IMG/VR virus record: IMGVR_UViG_3300033489_000003
Location: 40,644-104,643 of that record
Length of the DNA stretch: 64,000 bases
Origin: a virus
Direction: 5' to 3' (one strand)
Positions 2,169-51,721 of this stretch are shown piece after piece; within the stretch, counting starts at the first letter, position 1; every line of letters starts with the position of its first letter. A model generated the notes under the pieces. The model was not told the origin of the DNA. It did not search any database and was given only the letters and a program-made list of their open reading frames with translations. The position numbers were made by a program, and so were the translations under genes.

Positions 2169-3020
2169 GTGCTTCTCCTTGCTAGCACGAGCGACCTGCT
2201 CCGCGTCACCACAGGCCAGGCCGTATCTTCGGTCCACGTGCACGCGTCGTGGGTCGACATGCTCGCCGCAGCCGTCACGCCTGGCCGGACCAACACGCCC
2301 CCGATCACCACGGCCACGACGACGACCGTCGTCGCATCGCCAGCCGCAAGCACGTTCCGCACCGTCAAGACGCTCACCGTCCGGAACACGCACGCGTCAT
2401 CGTCCGTCGACGTGACGGTAGTGCACACCGACGGCACGAACGCGATGGAGCTAGTCAAAGCGACGCTTTCGGCTGGCGACTCTCTCCACTACGACGAGCA
2501 CAACGGCTTCACCGTGCGGGACAACCGCGGCCGCGTCATCATGCGGAGCGACGGCTTCGTGGCGGCAGCCGTTCAGTCGCTCAACACGGTCATTCTGGCG
2601 TCCGACGTCACCAATAACAACGCCGTCGCGAACACGATCGCGAACGTGACGGGGCTAGCCTTTCCGACGTCACCGAACGAGACCTACTGGTTCGAGTTCG
2701 TCATCGCCTACACTTCCGCCGCAACGACGACCGGCTCCCGTTGGTCGATCACCGGGCCGTCGTCGCCATCGCTGCTCCACTATCGCAGCGAATACACGCT
2801 CGCTGCGACGACGACGAGCCTGAACTCAGCGACTGCATATGACATTCCAGCCGCGTGCAATGCGACCAGTCTAACCGCCGGCAACATCGCGACGCTCTGG
2901 GGCATCATCCGAACCGCTGGCACTGGCGGCGACGTGACGGCGCGATTCGCGTCGGAGGTCGCCTCGAGCGCCATCGTCGCCAAGGCCGGCTCGGCTTGCC
3001 GTTGGATGCGCACGCTCTAA
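2169..3020 (+). CDS. Putative tail fiber/virion protein
   Basis: Thr/Ala/Ser-rich beta-type sequence; position in the tail cluster. Confidence 0.5.
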   Translation: MLLLASTSDLLRVTTGQAVSSVHVHASWVDMLAAAVTPGRTNTPPITTATTTTVVASPAASTFRTVKTLTVRNTHASSSVDVTVVHTDGTNAMELVKATLSAGDSLHYDEHNGFTVRDNRGRVIMRSDGFVAAAVQSLNTVILASDVTNNNAVANTIANVTGLAFPTSPNETYWFEFVIAYTSAATTTGSRWSITGPSSPSLLHYRSEYTLAATTTSLNSATAYDIPAACNATSLTAGNIATLWGIIRTAGTGGDVTARFASEVASSAIVAKAGSACRWMRTL

Positions 3021-39952: not shown

Positions 39953-41475
39953 GCGACGAAAAGTACGGGGCGATGCGCGGCTTTCAGGAGTCGCTCTATT
40001 CGTTGGCTGTCGACATTGTCGACGGCAGACGTACTGAGCGAACCTTCGTTTTGAGCGCTACGCCTGGCGGCGGGAAGACGCGGGCCTATTCGATCTTTGC
40101 CCACGAACTGCTCGAGGCCGGCATTGTTCAGAAAGTTCTCATCGTTGTGCCGCGCGACTCGCTTCGCTCGCAAGTGCGAGAGGGTTTTACGGATGGGCAA
40201 TACCTTTTCCGCGCGATCATAGACGACCCGAAGCAAATCAAGTCTGGCCAGGAGAGCATCCTTGCCCGTTCTGGATGGGTCACTACGTACCAAGCAATCG
40301 CCGCAGCGCCGAAGCGGTGGCAACGTCTTGTTGCGGACTTCAGGCTTCTTCTTGTTCTGGATGAAGGACATCACCTGTCCGAGCGCCCGACCGATGATCC
40401 CGAGATCGCGGAGGGCGCCGCTTGGTGGCAAAGCCTTAAACCGATCGCCGATGTGGCTGAAAAGATTTTAGTCGGCAGCGGCACGCTTTGGCGTGAGCGT
40501 GGCCAAAAGATTCCGTTGGTCCCGTACCGAGAAGACGGTTCTCTCGTTGCCGACGTGACCTACACGCGACGAGAGGCGCTTGCTGAAAAGGCCATTCTGC
40601 CTATCAACTTCAAACGCATCGACGGCCGCGCGATCTACGCCTCCAAGGGCAACGTCAAAAACGTCACGCTGTCGAGCGCCAAGAAGTCGGAAAACGCGAA
40701 GGCTCTCAAGACGCTTCTTCTGTCGCCCAACTATCGCGACGACGTTCTGGGCAGGCTTTCCGAGTGGGCGACGTATCGCCGGACGACCTATCCGTCCCGC
40801 GCGATCGTTGTCACGCATAGTCAATCGGCGGCGCGGTCAATCGCCGACATTGTCGGCAAACAGCTAGGCGTCAAGGTAGCTCTTGCCATAAGCGATGATG
40901 CGGCCAGTAAACGCCATCTGAAGGCGTTTCGTCGAGACCGGGTTGGCGATGTTCTCGTTACGGTTGGCATGGCCCACGAAGGGCTGGACGTGCCGGATTG
41001 CACGCATCTCATCTGCTTGACCGATGTCCGTTCTCCTGGATGGCTAGAGCAGATGTTCGGACGCGTGACGCGCTTCGATCCTTCCTGCGGTCTTACGTGG
41101 GAGCAGCAATGCGCGTACATCTATGTGCCAGATGATCCGCCGATGCGTGCGGTCATAGATGGCCTATTGGCCGAACAGCATCTTGCTTGGGAGGAGATGG
41201 CGCGCGGCAAGCCGAAAGGCATTCGCGTTCACCCGTTGGCCACCTTCCGACCGCTTGAAGGGTCGGCTGGAGAGACGCGCTACTCGTCCGTTGACGGCAA
41301 TTTCACCGATGAGCAGTCGCGGCTGATCATGCGCACGCTGAAGACGTGGCCAGAACTGGAAGTGCTCCCGTGGCACAAGGTGCTTGAGATTGGCACCCAC
41401 ACGGACTGGAACACGTTCAACGGACAAGGCCACGGCGGGGTCGGTTCGGCGGAGGCGACTGGCGATGCGAGCTGA
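39949..41475 (+). CDS. Superfamily 2 (DExH) helicase
   Basis: TPGGGKT, DEGHH, SGT, EGLDVP, QMFGRVTR. Confidence 0.9.
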   Translation: MSDEKYGAMRGFQESLYSLAVDIVDGRRTERTFVLSATPGGGKTRAYSIFAHELLEAGIVQKVLIVVPRDSLRSQVREGFTDGQYLFRAIIDDPKQIKSGQESILARSGWVTTYQAIAAAPKRWQRLVADFRLLLVLDEGHHLSERPTDDPEIAEGAAWWQSLKPIADVAEKILVGSGTLWRERGQKIPLVPYREDGSLVADVTYTRREALAEKAILPINFKRIDGRAIYASKGNVKNVTLSSAKKSENAKALKTLLLSPNYRDDVLGRLSEWATYRRTTYPSRAIVVTHSQSAARSIADIVGKQLGVKVALAISDDAASKRHLKAFRRDRVGDVLVTVGMAHEGLDVPDCTHLICLTDVRSPGWLEQMFGRVTRFDPSCGLTWEQQCAYIYVPDDPPMRAVIDGLLAEQHLAWEEMARGKPKGIRVHPLATFRPLEGSAGETRYSSVDGNFTDEQSRLIMRTLKTWPELEVLPWHKVLEIGTHTDWNTFNGQGHGGVGSAEATGDAS

Positions 41476-43583: not shown

Positions 43584-44890
43584 ACGACAACGCCAAGCTG
43601 ACGTATTCGCTCCTCGGCTTCTACCTCGCGGGTGCGCTGTCGATGCTCATCCCGACGCCGTTGAACTTCGTTGCCGGCGGCGTCGCTGGCTTGGTTGCGT
43701 ACGCGCTATCGGCGAGGTTAGCGGCATGACGCTCCTCACCCTCACCCTCGAAGCCGGCGACATCGTCTCCGCGTCCGCGCTCGACGCCGCTGCGCCGGTC
43801 GTTGCGGTTGCGGGGCTCGCCATCTTCATCGTGCTGGCGGTGCTGGAGATGCGGGAAATGCCGCGGGGAAGGAGGCGGTTGTGAAGGTCTTTATCTGGGA
43901 AGAGTGCGACTACGTCAGCGACCGCTACCACGACGACGGCGGTCTTACGGTTGTCGCGCGTGGTCTGGAAGCCGCTAGAAGGCTCATTGCGGAGACGTGC
44001 CCAAAGAAGTGCGCGGCACTAACCGCTGACCCGACGCTGGAACTCGACGTCGTCGACCCGGGAGAAGAGCGGATCTTCGTATTCAGAAACGCAGGGTGCT
44101 GCTGATGAAACGCGCCCTCATCATCCTCTGCGTCCTCTTCCTCGCGTGCGACCGCGCCGACGAGCTCCTGGCGTCCGCCGTCCTGGAGGCGCTTGCGGAG
44201 CCGGCGGTGCCGCACAGTGACCACGCAGCCGACTGTGCGCGGGGCGAGGCGCGCATGCTGTCGCCGGATGTGCAGGCTACCGTTGACTGCCGGCATATCG
44301 ACGCAGGAAGGCGGGCGCGATGAAGTCCGAAAAAACATGCGTGCACTTTCGCGGCATCCAGCACGATACCTGTCTGGCGGGCGTCGTCGTGCGCTCGGTG
44401 CGCGTGGTGCCGGAGAAAGGCCCGTATCGCTTGCCCTGCTTGCCGGTGATCGGCGGCGGCGACATTCCGAACAATTGCGAGCAACGCCGCTATCCCACGG
44501 CGGAAGAGGTCGCTGCGGACCACGCGATGTGGGAGCGCGCCTTCGCCGCGTTCGCCGCTGGCAAGTCGCCATGTTGTGACGCTCCGCTCGAGTCTCGCGG
44601 GACAGCCAGGTTCTGCTCCAAATGCCGTGAGTTCGTTGGTCGCGAGTGCGGCGCCGAAGACATTGGAGACGGCGCCAAATGAAATCTCACAAGCCACGCG
44701 CCATCAATCGCGACTTCGTCGCCATGCAGGCGAAGACGTCGAAGGGCAAGCGCGTCGGCGAGTCGTTCGTGCGTCCGCTGTTGCCGGGTGAGACGAAGCG
44801 GACGGCGGGCACGCTGTTCGCCGAATCGATCTTGAATCAGCCAGACGGCACGCCGTGGCCAATCCCGAAGCCGATTCGACGGAGGAGCGC

Positions 44891-45619
44891 GTGAAACGCG
44901 ACACCGTGTCTTCTGGCGCCGTCCTTGCGGCGCTGCGCAACGGACCGTTTCGGGAGCCGCTTAGAAAGCGATGCCGCACAGACAGGCCCTTTGGTTCAAG
45001 GCGCGGACAGCACTTCATAGTTCGCGACCGTGCGGATCAATTCCGCAGTGGAAAATTAATTCCAGTCAACGTCGGATTTAGGTGCGAATGGTGCGCATGC
45101 ACCGTCGAGTTAAACCGATCGATCCGATCGCACGGAGAGCCGCGCTTCTGTTCCAACATTTGTAATCGATTGGCTGCTTGGCAGACATCAGAAAAGCAAC
45201 AAGCGTGCGCCATGCGCGGCAAGGTCAACCCACAGTGGAAAGGGGACCATGCGTCGGCGCAGGCCGGGAGAGAGCGCGCGAGATCTATCTATCGACGGGT
45301 CGGCCCTTGCGACCGGTGCGGCAGGTCGCCTGCCGAGCGGCACCACAGCGACGGTAACACGCTCAATAATGAGCCTCGCAACGTTGACCTTCTATGCCGT
45401 CGCTGTCACATGCAAGAGGACGGTAGAGCTTCTGCGTTTATGGCGGCGCGGTCCTTTTCCGGACAACGTCGGGGCCGTCTAACGGAAGACGACGCGAGGC
45501 GCATTCGTGAACGCGTAGCGACCGGTGCCACGCGGCGTTCGATGGCGGCCGAATACGGCGTGAGCGCGACAACAATCAGGCGCGTTGTTAGACGCGAGAG
45601 TTTTGGTTGGGTCTCATGA
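44891..45619 (+). CDS. HNH endonuclease (Zn ribbon-HNH-HTH) with an N-terminus copied from the downstream gene
   Basis: GGAGGAG RBS; CEWC..FCSNIC, NPQWKG, CDRC..HHSDGN..NN...N...LCRRCH, C-terminal HTH. Confidence 0.85.
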   Translation: MKRDTVSSGAVLAALRNGPFREPLRKRCRTDRPFGSRRGQHFIVRDRADQFRSGKLIPVNVGFRCEWCACTVELNRSIRSHGEPRFCSNICNRLAAWQTSEKQQACAMRGKVNPQWKGDHASAQAGRERARSIYRRVGPCDRCGRSPAERHHSDGNTLNNEPRNVDLLCRRCHMQEDGRASAFMAARSFSGQRRGRLTEDDARRIRERVATGATRRSMAAEYGVSATTIRRVVRRESFGWVS

Positions 45620-48029: not shown

Positions 48030-48308
48030 ATGAAGACCTGTTCCAAGTGCCACGACGCAAAGCCGCTCGCGTGCTTCGGCCTTCAGTCCACGTCCGCATG
48101 CGGGAGACGCGCCGCGTGCCGCCTCTGCGAAGCGGAGCGGATGCGCGGATACAGAGCCAGCGGCGCTGGCGTGAACGCCAAAGGCACGGGCGGGCTGTCG
48201 CATCGCGAGATCGCGCGGCGGCTTGGGATGAGTAAATCGAGAATCCAACAACTCGAGGCGTCGGCCATGCGCAAGCTGCGGGCGGCGCTCGCGGAGGGCT
48301 GGAGATGA
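48030..48308 (+). CDS. Zn ribbon + sigma70 region 4-like HTH protein
   Basis: CSKC..CRLC; LSHREIARRLGMSKSRIQQLEASAMRKLR. Confidence 0.78.
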   Translation: MKTCSKCHDAKPLACFGLQSTSACGRRAACRLCEAERMRGYRASGAGVNAKGTGGLSHREIARRLGMSKSRIQQLEASAMRKLRAALAEGWR

Positions 48309-50146
48309 GCGCCAAGGAGATCGCGCAGGTCGTTGCAGGTGAGCGCAAATGGCATGTCGAGCAAGGCGATTGCCGCGATCTCCTCCGTCTCCTACAAGAC
48401 AACTGCGTCGACGCCATCGTGATCGATCTGCCATACGAAATTGGATTCATGTCAGCGACGTGGGACCGCACCGGCATCGCGTTCGATGTCGCGATGTGGA
48501 AAGAGGCGCTGCGCGTTCTCAAGCCAGGCGGTCACATTCTCTCGTTCGGCGGCACGCGCACCTATCACCGTATGGCGTGCGCGATTGAGGACGCCGGCGC
48601 TTGGTTTCGTGATCAAATTGATTGGTTATATGCACAAGGAATGCCGAAAGGACAGAATGTCAATAAGTTTGCCTACGGCGTCTGTCGTTGTGAAGAGGTA
48701 TCCCAACACGACGTGTCGCGTGTGCGGTCGTCCGACGTACAAACGTCCTTACCAGTTGGCGATGGGGAAGGGTCTGTACTGTTCGAGGGGCTGCCGGAAC
48801 AAGGCCCATCCACAGAAGGGGAGGTGCCCGCCGCGTCCTTACATGCGTGGAGCCCTCAACCCGGCATGGAAGGGTGGCGTGACGATTCGGAAGGCCCACG
48901 GGAACTACAAGGGCGGTCGCTACGTGCGGTGTCCGCCGGAACTGCTGACGATGGCGCGCCCGGACAAGTATATAGCGGAGCATCGACTGGTGATGGCGCG
49001 GTTGGTGGGCAGACCCTTGACGAGCGTCGAGGTAGTTCACCACGAAAACCACGACTCCCACGACAACGCGCCAAAGAACCTAGAACTTTGGCCAGACAAC
49101 AGGAGTCACAAGCTAGCGGAGCATGGCCGATTTGTGGAAGGTGCGGCCAACCTCGTCTTGCCACGGGTCTTGGCACTGGTCTGAAGCCATCTCATGAGCC
49201 GATCGCCATGGCGATGAAGCCGCTCGACGGCACATTCGAGCACAACGTCCGCAAGTGGGGAACGGGCGCGATCAATGTTGACGCGTGTCGAGTTGGAACC
49301 ATTGGTGGCACCCATAAATTTGATGCACCAAAAGACTCATCAGTTGGTGTTTTTGGCGACGGGCTAAATGGTGGCGGAGGTAAGGGGAGAGAAATAGATG
49401 CCGGCCGCTGGCCCGCAAATCTCATCCTCTCGCACGCAGAAGGCTGCCAGCGCGTCGGTGTCCGCAAAGTCAAAGTCGCGCCGCCGTGGAACGATAACCG
49501 GCCACCTTCGCTCTTCACTGGCGCGGAGACGTCACCGGTGCACCACACGGACGGCGACGGATTCGAGACGGTGGACGACTACCGCTGCGTCGAAGGGTGC
49601 CCAGTGGGGATGTTGGATGGGCAGAGCGGGGTGAGCGGACCAAGCGGTCGCCCTAACAGTTACGGCAATGTGTACCGCAATACCGGGTTCGGTGATTTTG
49701 GTCACAGCGAGTACCACAACCTGCATCTAGACTCAGGCGGCGCCTCTCGCTACTTCACCACGTTCCCCTACGAGCCGTTCTTTTACGAGCCGAAAGCGTC
49801 GCAGGCAGAACGGGAGCGCGGCTGCGAGTGGATGGACGAGGAAGTCGTCGACGACGGGCGTCACACGCCGAACGACACGCCCTACCAGCGCGGCAAGAAG
49901 AAGCGGAAGAACACGCACACGACGGTGAAGCCCGTCGGCGTGATCCGCTGGTGCACGCGTCTCGTGTGCCGTCGCGGCGGCCTCGTGCTCGACATGACAT
50001 GCGGGAGCGGTACCGGTGGGATCGCGGCGCTCGCCGAGGGCTGTCGCTGGATCGGTTTTGAGCTCAAGCCGAAGCACGTTGAAATCGCCATCGCGCGAAT
50101 CATCGGCGACGCGCCGCTGCTTAACACGATCGGAGCCGTCCGATGA
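48305..50146 (+). CDS. N4/N6 amino DNA methyltransferase (beta class) with a large insertion
   Basis: GDC, motif IV DLPY, RVLKPGG, LKPSHEPI, GRWPAN, HTTVKP, motif I DMTCGSGT. Confidence 0.9.
   Translation: MSAKEIAQVVAGERKWHVEQGDCRDLLRLLQDNCVDAIVIDLPYEIGFMSATWDRTGIAFDVAMWKEALRVLKPGGHILSFGGTRTYHRMACAIEDAGAWFRDQIDWLYAQGMPKGQNVNKFAYGVCRCEEVSQHDVSRVRSSDVQTSLPVGDGEGSVLFEGLPEQGPSTEGEVPAASLHAWSPQPGMEGWRDDSEGPRELQGRSLRAVSAGTADDGAPGQVYSGASTGDGAVGGQTLDERRGSSPRKPRLPRQRAKEPRTLARQQESQASGAWPICGRCGQPRLATGLGTGLKPSHEPIAMAMKPLDGTFEHNVRKWGTGAINVDACRVGTIGGTHKFDAPKDSSVGVFGDGLNGGGGKGREIDAGRWPANLILSHAEGCQRVGVRKVKVAPPWNDNRPPSLFTGAETSPVHHTDGDGFETVDDYRCVEGCPVGMLDGQSGVSGPSGRPNSYGNVYRNTGFGDFGHSEYHNLHLDSGGASRYFTTFPYEPFFYEPKASQAERERGCEWMDEEVVDDGRHTPNDTPYQRGKKKRKNTHTTVKPVGVIRWCTRLVCRRGGLVLDMTCGSGTGGIAALAEGCRWIGFELKPKHVEIAIARIIGDAPLLNTIGAVR
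48657..49184 (+). CDS. HNH homing endonuclease nested in the +1 frame of the methyltransferase
   Basis: AAAGGA RBS; CRVC..YCSRGC, NPAWKGG, YIAEHRLVMA..VGRPL...EVVHHEN....DN...NLEL. Confidence 0.9.
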   Translation: MSISLPTASVVVKRYPNTTCRVCGRPTYKRPYQLAMGKGLYCSRGCRNKAHPQKGRCPPRPYMRGALNPAWKGGVTIRKAHGNYKGGRYVRCPPELLTMARPDKYIAEHRLVMARLVGRPLTSVEVVHHENHDSHDNAPKNLELWPDNRSHKLAEHGRFVEGAANLVLPRVLALV

Positions 50147-50817
50147 TCCACCCGGTCCGCTGCCTCCAGCGCCACCAATCGACTTATTTGAGCGACGTCA
50201 TCAATCGAGACGGCAGCATCTCGCACTTGTGCGGAGACTGTCAGCGCGAGGCAAGCGACCAGCTCGTTTTGGTCAACCTCGTCCGTCTGCTTTTTAAGAG
50301 GTCGAGCGAGCTGACGGCGGATGAGCGGAAGGAGAGTGGGACGTGAGAACAGCGCCCCCTTGTCCGCCGCACGTCATTGACGCGATCAATTCCGCGATGA
50401 AAGACGCATATATCGCAGGGCTCAAGGACGGGTTAGCGGTTGCCGAGAACATTCGTGGCTGGCTCACTAGAGAGCCTGACACCAACAGGCAAGCCGAGGC
50501 CCGAGCGTGGGCGGACGCGGCAATTGAGCGAGCGAAGAAAAGAGTGTTGCTATGAGGGATCGCTGGAAAGACACCAGTTCCTGGAGCCAGCGCGACCCGT
50601 CGGATCTTCGCGTCCCAAAGGAGTGGACTCTTCGCACGGCCAACGTCCGAATCGTCGTGCACCATCACATGGATTACGAGCCCGACCGGTGGTTCTGCTC
50701 CGCGTATCCGTTGTTCGACATGCAAGGTCTGATGGCTGGCGACGCTGAGGCGGCCAAGGCTGAGGCTGTGGAGCTCGTTGGACAGTGGTTGCGGACGGCG
50801 CTGAGGGGGCTGGAGAC

Positions 50818-51237
50818 ATGATCGTTCTTGTTACAGGAGGTCGTGACTTCGCCGACGAAGCGCTGCTGTATGCGACGCTCGACCGCGTCCACGCGGAGAC
50901 GCCCATCCTTGCCGTCATCCACGGCGGATGCCACGAGCGCGGCAAGTCGGAGTTCTGTGGTGCCGATGGGCTGGCTGACGATTGGGCGAAGAGCCGCGGC
51001 GTGCGCGTTGAGCCGTATCCGGTCAGCGATGAGGAAGGGGAGCGAAAGGGGAAGCGTGCGGGGCCTGAGCGAAACGGCTTCTGCGTTGGTCGCCTGGCCA
51101 CGCTGGCTGGGTCGCTGGGCGCCGAGAAGCTGTGCGTGGCGTTTCCCACGGGCGGACCTGGCACGCGCGACTGCATGCGGCAGGCGCGCGGCGCGCGGGT
51201 TGAGGTTGTTGTGATTGAGGGCGGTGAGCATGCTTAG
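50818..51237 (+). CDS. DUF2493/SLOG family protein
   Basis: VLVTGGRDF, VIHGG, GADGLA..WA, AGP.RN, VAFP.GG.GT. Confidence 0.85.
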   Translation: MIVLVTGGRDFADEALLYATLDRVHAETPILAVIHGGCHERGKSEFCGADGLADDWAKSRGVRVEPYPVSDEEGERKGKRAGPERNGFCVGRLATLAGSLGAEKLCVAFPTGGPGTRDCMRQARGARVEVVVIEGGEHA

Positions 51238-51721
51238 CTTCCGCATCGACGGAGAGAGGCTGTTGCACGACAACCGTTATACCGATAGGAGCGACGCTGG
51301 TTTCCGTGCCTACATCAGTTCAATCGCGTACTGTTGCGAGTTCAGTCTTTGGGACTGCCTTGTAACTAGGGACGCGACGTGGATGTTCAGTAGGCCGGAA
51401 TGCCTTGAAGCTGTCGAAGAGGAACTATTTCGTGCCCGATTGTGGGTAGTGGACGGCCGCACGCTGCAAGTCTTTGGCAAAGGCAAATTGTTCGAGCTCG
51501 TAGCGAGAGAGCCAATCTCAAAGGCTCTGCGAGCAAAAGTGGTTGCTCGCGACGGGCTACTGTGCGGTATCTGCGGTGGCGACGTCGAGTACAATGATGT
51601 TCACCTCGACCACGTCAGACCTGTGCTGCTTGGCGGACCTACAGTCGCGTCGAATCTGCGCGTGACTCATTCTCAGTGCAACTTGCGACGCCCGAAGCGG
51701 CCGGAGGAATTTATCCAATGA
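51230..51721 (+). CDS. HNH (McrA-type) nuclease with a Rep-like N-terminal domain
   Basis: ARDGLLCGICG..HLDHVRP...GG.....NLRVTHSQCN. Confidence 0.85.
   Translation: MLSFRIDGERLLHDNRYTDRSDAGFRAYISSIAYCCEFSLWDCLVTRDATWMFSRPECLEAVEEELFRARLWVVDGRTLQVFGKGKLFELVAREPISKALRAKVVARDGLLCGICGGDVEYNDVHLDHVRPVLLGGPTVASNLRVTHSQCNLRRPKRPEEFIQ

Follow-up and report, generated by a model that had tools for sequence, protein, structure and literature searches.

Within a 64,000-nucleotide (nt) window of viral DNA (positions 40,644 to 104,643 of virus record IMGVR_UViG_3300033489_000003, a complete genome of 104.6 kb), the gene for an HNH endonuclease lies inside a DNA methyltransferase (methylase) gene, in the +1 frame. 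The methylase frame is free of stop codons across the whole HNH gene, and comparison with relatives shows that selection on synonymous sites of the HNH gene keeps it so. The arrangement is likely to represent a mobile HNH homing cassette that is read through by the phage methylase gene, its alternative-frame product forming a loop that is probably tied by cysteines. The features concerned are as follows (window coordinates).

48305..50146, + strand: beta-class N6-adenine/N4-cytosine DNA methyltransferase open reading frame (ORF), 613 amino acids (aa), open from start to stop across the insert (PF01555, E 8e-24)
48425..48436, + strand: methylase motif IV, D-L-P-Y, a variant of DPPY (D41 and P43 invariant in the methylase alignment)
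48647..48652, + strand: AAAGGA, a putative Shine-Dalgarno-like sequence for the HNH gene, 4 nt 5′ of the ATG at 48657
48657..49184, + strand: HNH endonuclease ORF (putative homing endonuclease), 175 aa, +1 frame, wholly within the methylase ORF (phrog_20891 "HNH endonuclease", E 8e-16)
48683..48691, + strand: N-side cysteine pair C127-R-C129 (CxC), methylase frame, in an island (residues 125-131) with a predicted local distance difference test score (pLDDT) of at least 50
48690, + strand: alternative in-frame GTG start of the HNH ORF, seen in the sequence
48698..49117, + strand: read-through of the HNH gene in the methylase frame, ~140 aa (residues 132-271), predicted by AlphaFold2 to be disordered and looped out (pLDDT 29-42)
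48714..48794, + strand: zinc finger near the HNH N terminus (C20, C23, C42 and C46, HNH frame; nearly invariant alignment columns)
49038..49112, + strand: HNH catalytic motif (H128-H129 ... N137 ... N141 ... H151-K152; invariant columns)
49133..49144, + strand: C-side cysteine pair C277-G-R-C280 (CxxC), methylase frame, overlapping the C-terminal tail of the HNH protein, in an island with pLDDT of at least 50 (residues 272-286)
49166..50146, + strand: C-terminal part of the methylase, with the GLGTGLKPSHEPI strand, variable region, motif X (NTHTTVKP) and S-adenosylmethionine (SAM) motif I, delimited by alignments (PF01555 stretch 491-595)
49991-50020, + strand: SAM motif I, DMTCGSGTGG, within the C-terminal part of the methylase

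An earlier note on this DNA, made from the letters alone, had described the complete HNH ORF within the methylase ORF, an AAAGGA ribosome-binding site of its own, the absence of stops in the methylase frame, and C-R-C and C-G-R-C pairs bracketing a disordered-looking stretch; it had seen neither an intein signature nor room for a group I intron. All of these observations hold at the positions listed.

The HNH protein is recognised by its PHROG match and by its conserved residues. H129, H132, N137, N141 and H151 are invariant in the HNH alignment, as expected for the beta-beta-alpha metal finger by which the HNH superfamily is recognised, and 414 homologues were found at ~60% identity. Its score against Pfam HNH_3 (22.4 bits) lies under the 24.8 cut-off. 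The AlphaFold2 model (pLDDT 77) has as its best structural neighbour in VIA-align the homing endonuclease I-HmuI (1U3E, Z 4.5), followed by other HNH nucleases, all of these matches being weak; Foldseek gave no significant match for the model, and sequence searches against solved structures with the single sequence or a profile gave none. The ends of the gene are built into conserved methylase codons. Its start codon and AAAGGA are formed by the codons for the conserved GMPKGQNVNK, the AAAGGA itself by the Lys-Gly codons of GMPKG, and its stop falls within the codons for GLGTGLK.

Across the HNH gene there are 0 stops in the methylase frame and 10 in the third frame. When HNH codons were shuffled among synonymous codons, the methylase frame was stop-free in 0.0001 of 20,000 shuffles (P about 1e-4), with a mean of 6.05 stops expected. 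The comparison was extended to 108 loci encoding HNH relatives on viral, metagenome and genome contigs, corresponding to 98 distinct sequences. The host frame contains zero stops in 95 of the 98, at G+C contents of 0.35-0.69 and against a mean expectation of 6.1, while the third frame contains 1-16. At 81 of the 108 loci the HNH gene lies at +1 with both methylase halves flanking it in one frame. The constraint can be read from individual codons: T never ends an HNH codon that precedes a codon starting with AA, AG or GA, and the His151 codon ends in C, never in T, in 90/90 relatives, since CAT followed by AAR would put a TAA into the methylase frame. A free-standing HNH relative with its own ribosome-binding site and unrelated genes on either side (L022) provides a natural control, with 4 stops in the corresponding frame. 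Selection on HNH synonymous sites thus keeps the methylase frame stop-free, and the open frame is not a matter of chance. Hydrophobic residues are slightly depleted in the read-through peptide (0.179 vs 0.190 in shuffles; Wilcoxon 4e-12). Selection for disorder was considered as the cause of this depletion and rejected, since avoidance of stop codons starting with T also removes Tyr, Trp and Cys codons.

The host protein can be assigned to the beta-class N6/N4 methyltransferases by its PF01555 match, its fold and the position of motif IV ahead of motif I. Its core is modelled by AlphaFold2 at pLDDT 85-98, and the best Foldseek matches of the model are CcrM (6PBD), M.BceJIV and M.RsrI. The methylase motifs on both sides of the insert are all intact. 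A different insertion, of ~250 aa and in frame, follows directly after motif IV in three of the closest relatives of the window methylase (P0004, P0006 and P0007, between DLPYEL and SNDGKAS) and is absent from the window methylase; it is conserved at the protein level among all three and has no obvious intein ends.

Read in the methylase frame, the insert matches no Pfam or PHROG family. It lies in a loop of the methylase core, flanked by two predicted strands (residues 100-109 and 296-304) that are neighbours and that, from their order in the model, would be strands 6 and 7 of the class I methyltransferase fold. In this fold, strands 6 and 7 are adjacent and antiparallel, so the ends of the loop would lie close together in space anyway. 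The insert is not the simple insertion that had been supposed. Alignment with insertion-free homologues, in which the cassette boundaries are fixed at the protein level only, shows that it replaces a loop: the seven closest insert-free methylases (57-72% identical) share a native, conserved 69-aa loop between GMPKGxNISK and GWGTGLKP, and the window methylase lacks this loop and has ~170 aa of out-of-frame HNH reading in its place. A scan of viral contigs with one insert-free methylase (P0002) found nothing closer than 46%. A frameshift fusion of the N-terminal part of the methylase to the HNH protein was considered and rejected, as the HNH frame is closed just upstream in most relatives.

The loop in the window methylase contains exactly four cysteines, all at its ends. 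Within its otherwise disordered region (residues 111-295), the only residues that AlphaFold2 places at pLDDT of at least 50 are the two islands that hold the cysteine pairs (125-131 and 272-286). Among 113 close methylase homologues, both pairs occur in 35 with a long loop (150 aa or more), always of 170-272 aa, and the full bracket is missing from the 74 short-loop proteins and from 4 loops of 140-157 aa. Of the HNH loci, 69 have both loop ends on the contig and are counted as complete loops; these comprise 51 with both pairs, 13 without either and 5 of mixed type. Cassettes that lack the bracket keep the end segments of the native loop instead. In two loci (L048:2089-4269 and L035:1691-3694), a cysteine-bracketed cassette is found at a second site, upstream of the window site and between NIARFYG and (L/I)AWVMGSGFPKS, and the native loop is intact downstream of it. 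Since the bracket is intact at this second site, the cysteines are a feature of the cassette, not of the methylase. A host segment is apparently repeated on both sides of the second site (IARFYG / (L/I)AWVMG).

The same family of HNH genes is also carried by inteins. Related methylases contain a canonical intein between WVYG and SGFPKS (L108:1906-4059; also L099, L100, L103, L105, L106 and L107), which starts with CLSEDTE, has an SRNHR block and ends with GAFVARRNGKVF(I/L)TGN, followed by Ser. The middle of this intein corresponds to an intact HNH gene of the window family translated in the wrong frame, the HNH gene again lying at +1; the intein frame is stop-free and there encodes no endonuclease. 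In the HNH tree, the intein-borne sequences nest beside the cysteine-clasped ones. An intein with a homing nuclease overprinted in another frame is not described in either of two papers on hidden HNH genes in phage methylases (Gosselin et al., 2023, PMC9957025; Arsenault, Gosselin and Gogarten, 2025, PMC11855218).

Comparison of the trees also bears on inheritance. In the methylase-core tree, which was built with FastTree and is approximate in topology, the window methylase nests with a support of 100 among the seven insert-free methylases that have the 69-aa loop, and the long-loop state changes at least 15 times, 7 of these changes being forced by well-supported branches. HNH identity correlates weakly with methylase-core identity (r = 0.25) and exceeds it (0.57 vs 0.47). 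The lineage of the window HNH is present in contigs assigned to many bacterial phyla. By these comparisons the cassette looks horizontally mobile, moving between diverged alleles. Two metagenome contigs carry an identical locus twice each (L036/L038, ~38 kb apart, and L048/L049, ~29 kb apart), which probably reflects concatemeric or terminal-repeat phage assemblies and not two gene copies.

A mechanism consistent with these features can be proposed. The methylase mRNA would remain unspliced and ribosomes would read across the cassette without a break, giving the 613-aa enzyme; no protein splicing would follow, and the ~140-aa alternative-frame stretch would hang out from the enzyme as a disordered loop. 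The HNH protein would be made by internal initiation at the ATG at 48657, by means of the upstream AAAGGA, and would cleave methylase alleles that lack the insert. The occupied allele would then serve as the template for repair, and crossovers in the conserved GFPK and GTxLKP flanks would bring the cassette into the cut allele. C127, C129, C277 and C280, carried as part of the cassette, would probably bind one zinc ion and so tie the ends of the loop together.

The last of these steps is the one most exposed to a different reading, in which the cysteine bracket is a by-product of the HNH frame, a legacy of shared ancestry, or a DNA contact or disulfide, and the nested HNH gene and its read-through otherwise hold. 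Several results weigh against a zinc clasp and towards this reading. Thirteen complete loops do without both pairs and five have only one; the pLDDT of the two islands is no more than 50-65. The HNH tree shows only ~4 changes of each cysteine trait; on it, a test of the N-side against the C-side pair with independent pairs has 2-4 pairs, a median p of 0.5 and no power, and the co-occurrence of the two (Fisher p 8e-10) is inflated by shared ancestry. Moreover, the free-standing L022 keeps a similar HNH tail (GRFVAGSVNR), so constraints in the HNH frame may account for part of the conservation of the C-side pair. Other results are harder to reconcile with such a reading. In most loci the N-side pair coincides with or precedes the HNH start, where the methylase frame is the only constraint on it. 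On the C side, no column of the HNH alignment varies more than residue 159 (3.35 bits); its codon nevertheless has T in the third position in 62% of relatives, where the mean is 15%, a fourfold enrichment, and this T begins the C-side cysteine codon. Sub-lineages also differ in the HNH codons that the C-side pair overlies (for example, EPCxFCKQ over the NLVLF motif), and both pairs have moved jointly to the second site in L035 and L048. On this evidence from alignments and models, a non-clasp origin of the bracket seems rather unlikely, and the balance tips modestly towards the zinc clasp. The clasp proposed in the earlier note thereby gains comparative evidence and a weak structural hint; at the same time, about a fifth of the related cassettes are without the bracket, so a clasp is not indispensable for tolerance of the insert.

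The other alternatives concern the cassette as a whole. The HNH protein could be a domesticated, vertically inherited partner of the methylase, as in a restriction-modification-like pair or as a packaging or repair nuclease, in which case it would not be a homing element. The arrangement is indeed old, with frame and site conserved across many phyla, and phage HNH proteins are known to have non-homing roles (see also PMC11855218); but the nesting of the window methylase among insert-free relatives, the repeated changes of state on the methylase tree, the weak correlation between HNH and host identities, and the occurrence of the same cassette at a second site and inside inteins make this improbable. 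That the methylase becomes active only once the insert has been removed, through a form of RNA splicing, ribosomal bypass or protein splicing that escaped recognition, might be suspected from the presence of the same HNH family inside true inteins of related methylases. The window, however, offers little to carry it out: a search of Rfam over 48200-50300 found no intron or other family at E up to 1, the HNH ORF spans the entire insert and leaves no room for an intron ribozyme core, the Hint and intein families have no match on the window protein, and the junctions (NKF/AYG and LAT/GLG) lack both an intein N-terminal Cys/Ser and a terminal Asn followed by Ser/Thr/Cys. A spliced or bypassed RNA, moreover, would not need a selected open frame, and removal of the insert appears very improbable. 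The remaining alternative, that the methylase is dead and its frame is kept open only for translation through the operon, whether to avoid polarity or to support HNH expression, draws on the dispensability of the methylase in some phages (PMC11855218) and on motif IV, which reads DLPY and not DPPY and so counts against a working enzyme. The same DLPY is, however, common to the insert-free methylases P0002, P0003, P0004, P0005 and P0006, the window motifs before and after the insert are intact, and both halves are recognisable in one frame at 81 loci across G+C contents of 0.35 to 0.69; a dead methylase can be regarded as very improbable. A homing cassette that is translated through, as outlined above, remains the reading that we consider likely.

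Homing endonucleases are usually said to persist in genes by means of self-splicing introns or inteins. The earlier note had presented the window arrangement as a third way for such an enzyme to sit in a gene. The layout bears this out, with the open frame and the cysteine bracket both found widely in relatives, but the claim of novelty does not stand, as the main idea of a splicing-free hidden HNH is already known and was published in 2023-2025 as the ShiLan domain. This domain was described in mycobacteriophage DNA methylases (ShiLan gp65 and Mantra gp64) as a patchily distributed element with a stop-free host frame and no intron or intein features, whose third frame hides an HNH gene and whose host-frame product should, by prediction, loop out (PMC9957025; PMC11855218). 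The layout was confirmed here in Mycobacterium phage Mantra gp64 (L001:1422-3746), where the hidden HNH ORF (2321-3010) lies in frame +2 and the host frame is stop-free. An in-frame LAGLIDADG-type insertion near the N terminus of Mantra gp64 (AYWLAGLIDGEGCF) corresponds to the "second endonuclease" of PMC9957025.

The window shares with the ShiLan domain an HNH gene wholly inside the host ORF on the same strand and in a different frame, together with the open frame, the patchiness and the lack of a splicing signature. The host methylases belong to the same family (Mantra gp64 and the N-terminal part of the window methylase are 65% identical over 55 aa) and the HNH proteins are distant homologues (38% identity over 126 aa). 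The site differs: the ShiLan domain lies after the HEPxxxARKP strand (HEPVVVARKP in Mantra), flanked by a repeated 11-aa host segment, whereas the window cassette lies before that strand and before GLGTGLKP, within the preceding loop, which it replaces. The frame differs as well (+2, the "third frame", in ShiLan and +1 in the window). Given these differences in site and frame from ShiLan gp65 and Mantra gp64, the window element is not a ShiLan domain proper. The ShiLan HNH protein has 195 aa and two zinc fingers, and its GTG start lacks a ribosome-binding site; the window HNH protein has 175 aa and one finger, with an ATG start preceded by AAAGGA. No cysteine or zinc in the host frame is mentioned in PMC9957025 or PMC11855218, and no bracket was seen in Mantra. 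The known range of the ShiLan domain is mycobacteriophages, in contrast to the many bacterial phyla of the contigs that hold the window lineage. Beyond what is published, the window contributes a separate lineage that is very widespread, proof at the level of codons that the open frame is selected for, and support by comparison for a cysteine clasp carried on the cassette.

Other known systems resemble the window in part. Pacc40 gp60 (PMC11855218, section 3.6) likewise has an out-of-frame nuclease-like ORF in a methylase and a disordered host-frame product, but it belongs to a helicase-methylase fusion family and uses another site; the likeness is one of description only, and the HNH assignment was rated less certain by its authors. 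Methylase inteins, like the window cassette, are selfish elements in a conserved gene beside the GFPKS motif whose host frame must stay open; unlike them, the window has no Hint blocks or intein junction residues, so nothing is present to excise the insert. I-HmuI of phage SPO1 is likewise an HNH homing endonuclease that interrupts a phage gene, but from a group I intron, and the window has neither a ribozyme (no Rfam match) nor non-coding room for one. In Aeromonas phage Aeh1, the free-standing homing endonuclease gene mobE splits nrdA into two ORFs that yield two working polypeptides. Both mobE and the window HNH gene thus lie in a coding region without an intron or intein, and in the window the host gene stays one ORF.

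The methylase gene is found in a replication module, with genes for a helicase, a repair protein, a replication initiator and another, free-standing HNH endonuclease as neighbours. The gene immediately upstream (48030-48308) encodes 92 aa that include a helix-turn-helix of sigma-70 region 4 (PF04545, E 9e-9), and its end overlaps the methylase start in an ATGA; an ORF at 50143-50346 overlaps the methylase stop likewise. From these overlaps at its start and stop, the methylase gene appears to be part of a tightly coupled operon. The free-standing HNH gene (51215-51721) matches several PHROG HNH families (best E 3e-11), and a 254-aa ORF at 44855-45619 has weak HNH and helix-turn-helix matches.

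The findings show that the splicing-free strategy is general: the ShiLan domain is known from a handful of mycobacteriophages, and a separate lineage, always at +1, is now found in hundreds of metagenomic contigs. For annotation, they mean that gene callers give either the long methylase or the HNH gene at such loci, never both together. A wider scheme, which we put forward tentatively and without favouring it, is that an element-encoded zinc staple renders the 170-aa out-of-frame insert harmless in any loop and that, with the same HNH family in inteins at a neighbouring site, intein-borne and splicing-free forms make up a series. If the clasp is indeed zinc-binding and borne by the cassette, it would be a concrete way for a protein to tolerate a large junk insertion, and possibly a design rule for putting cargo into protein loops.

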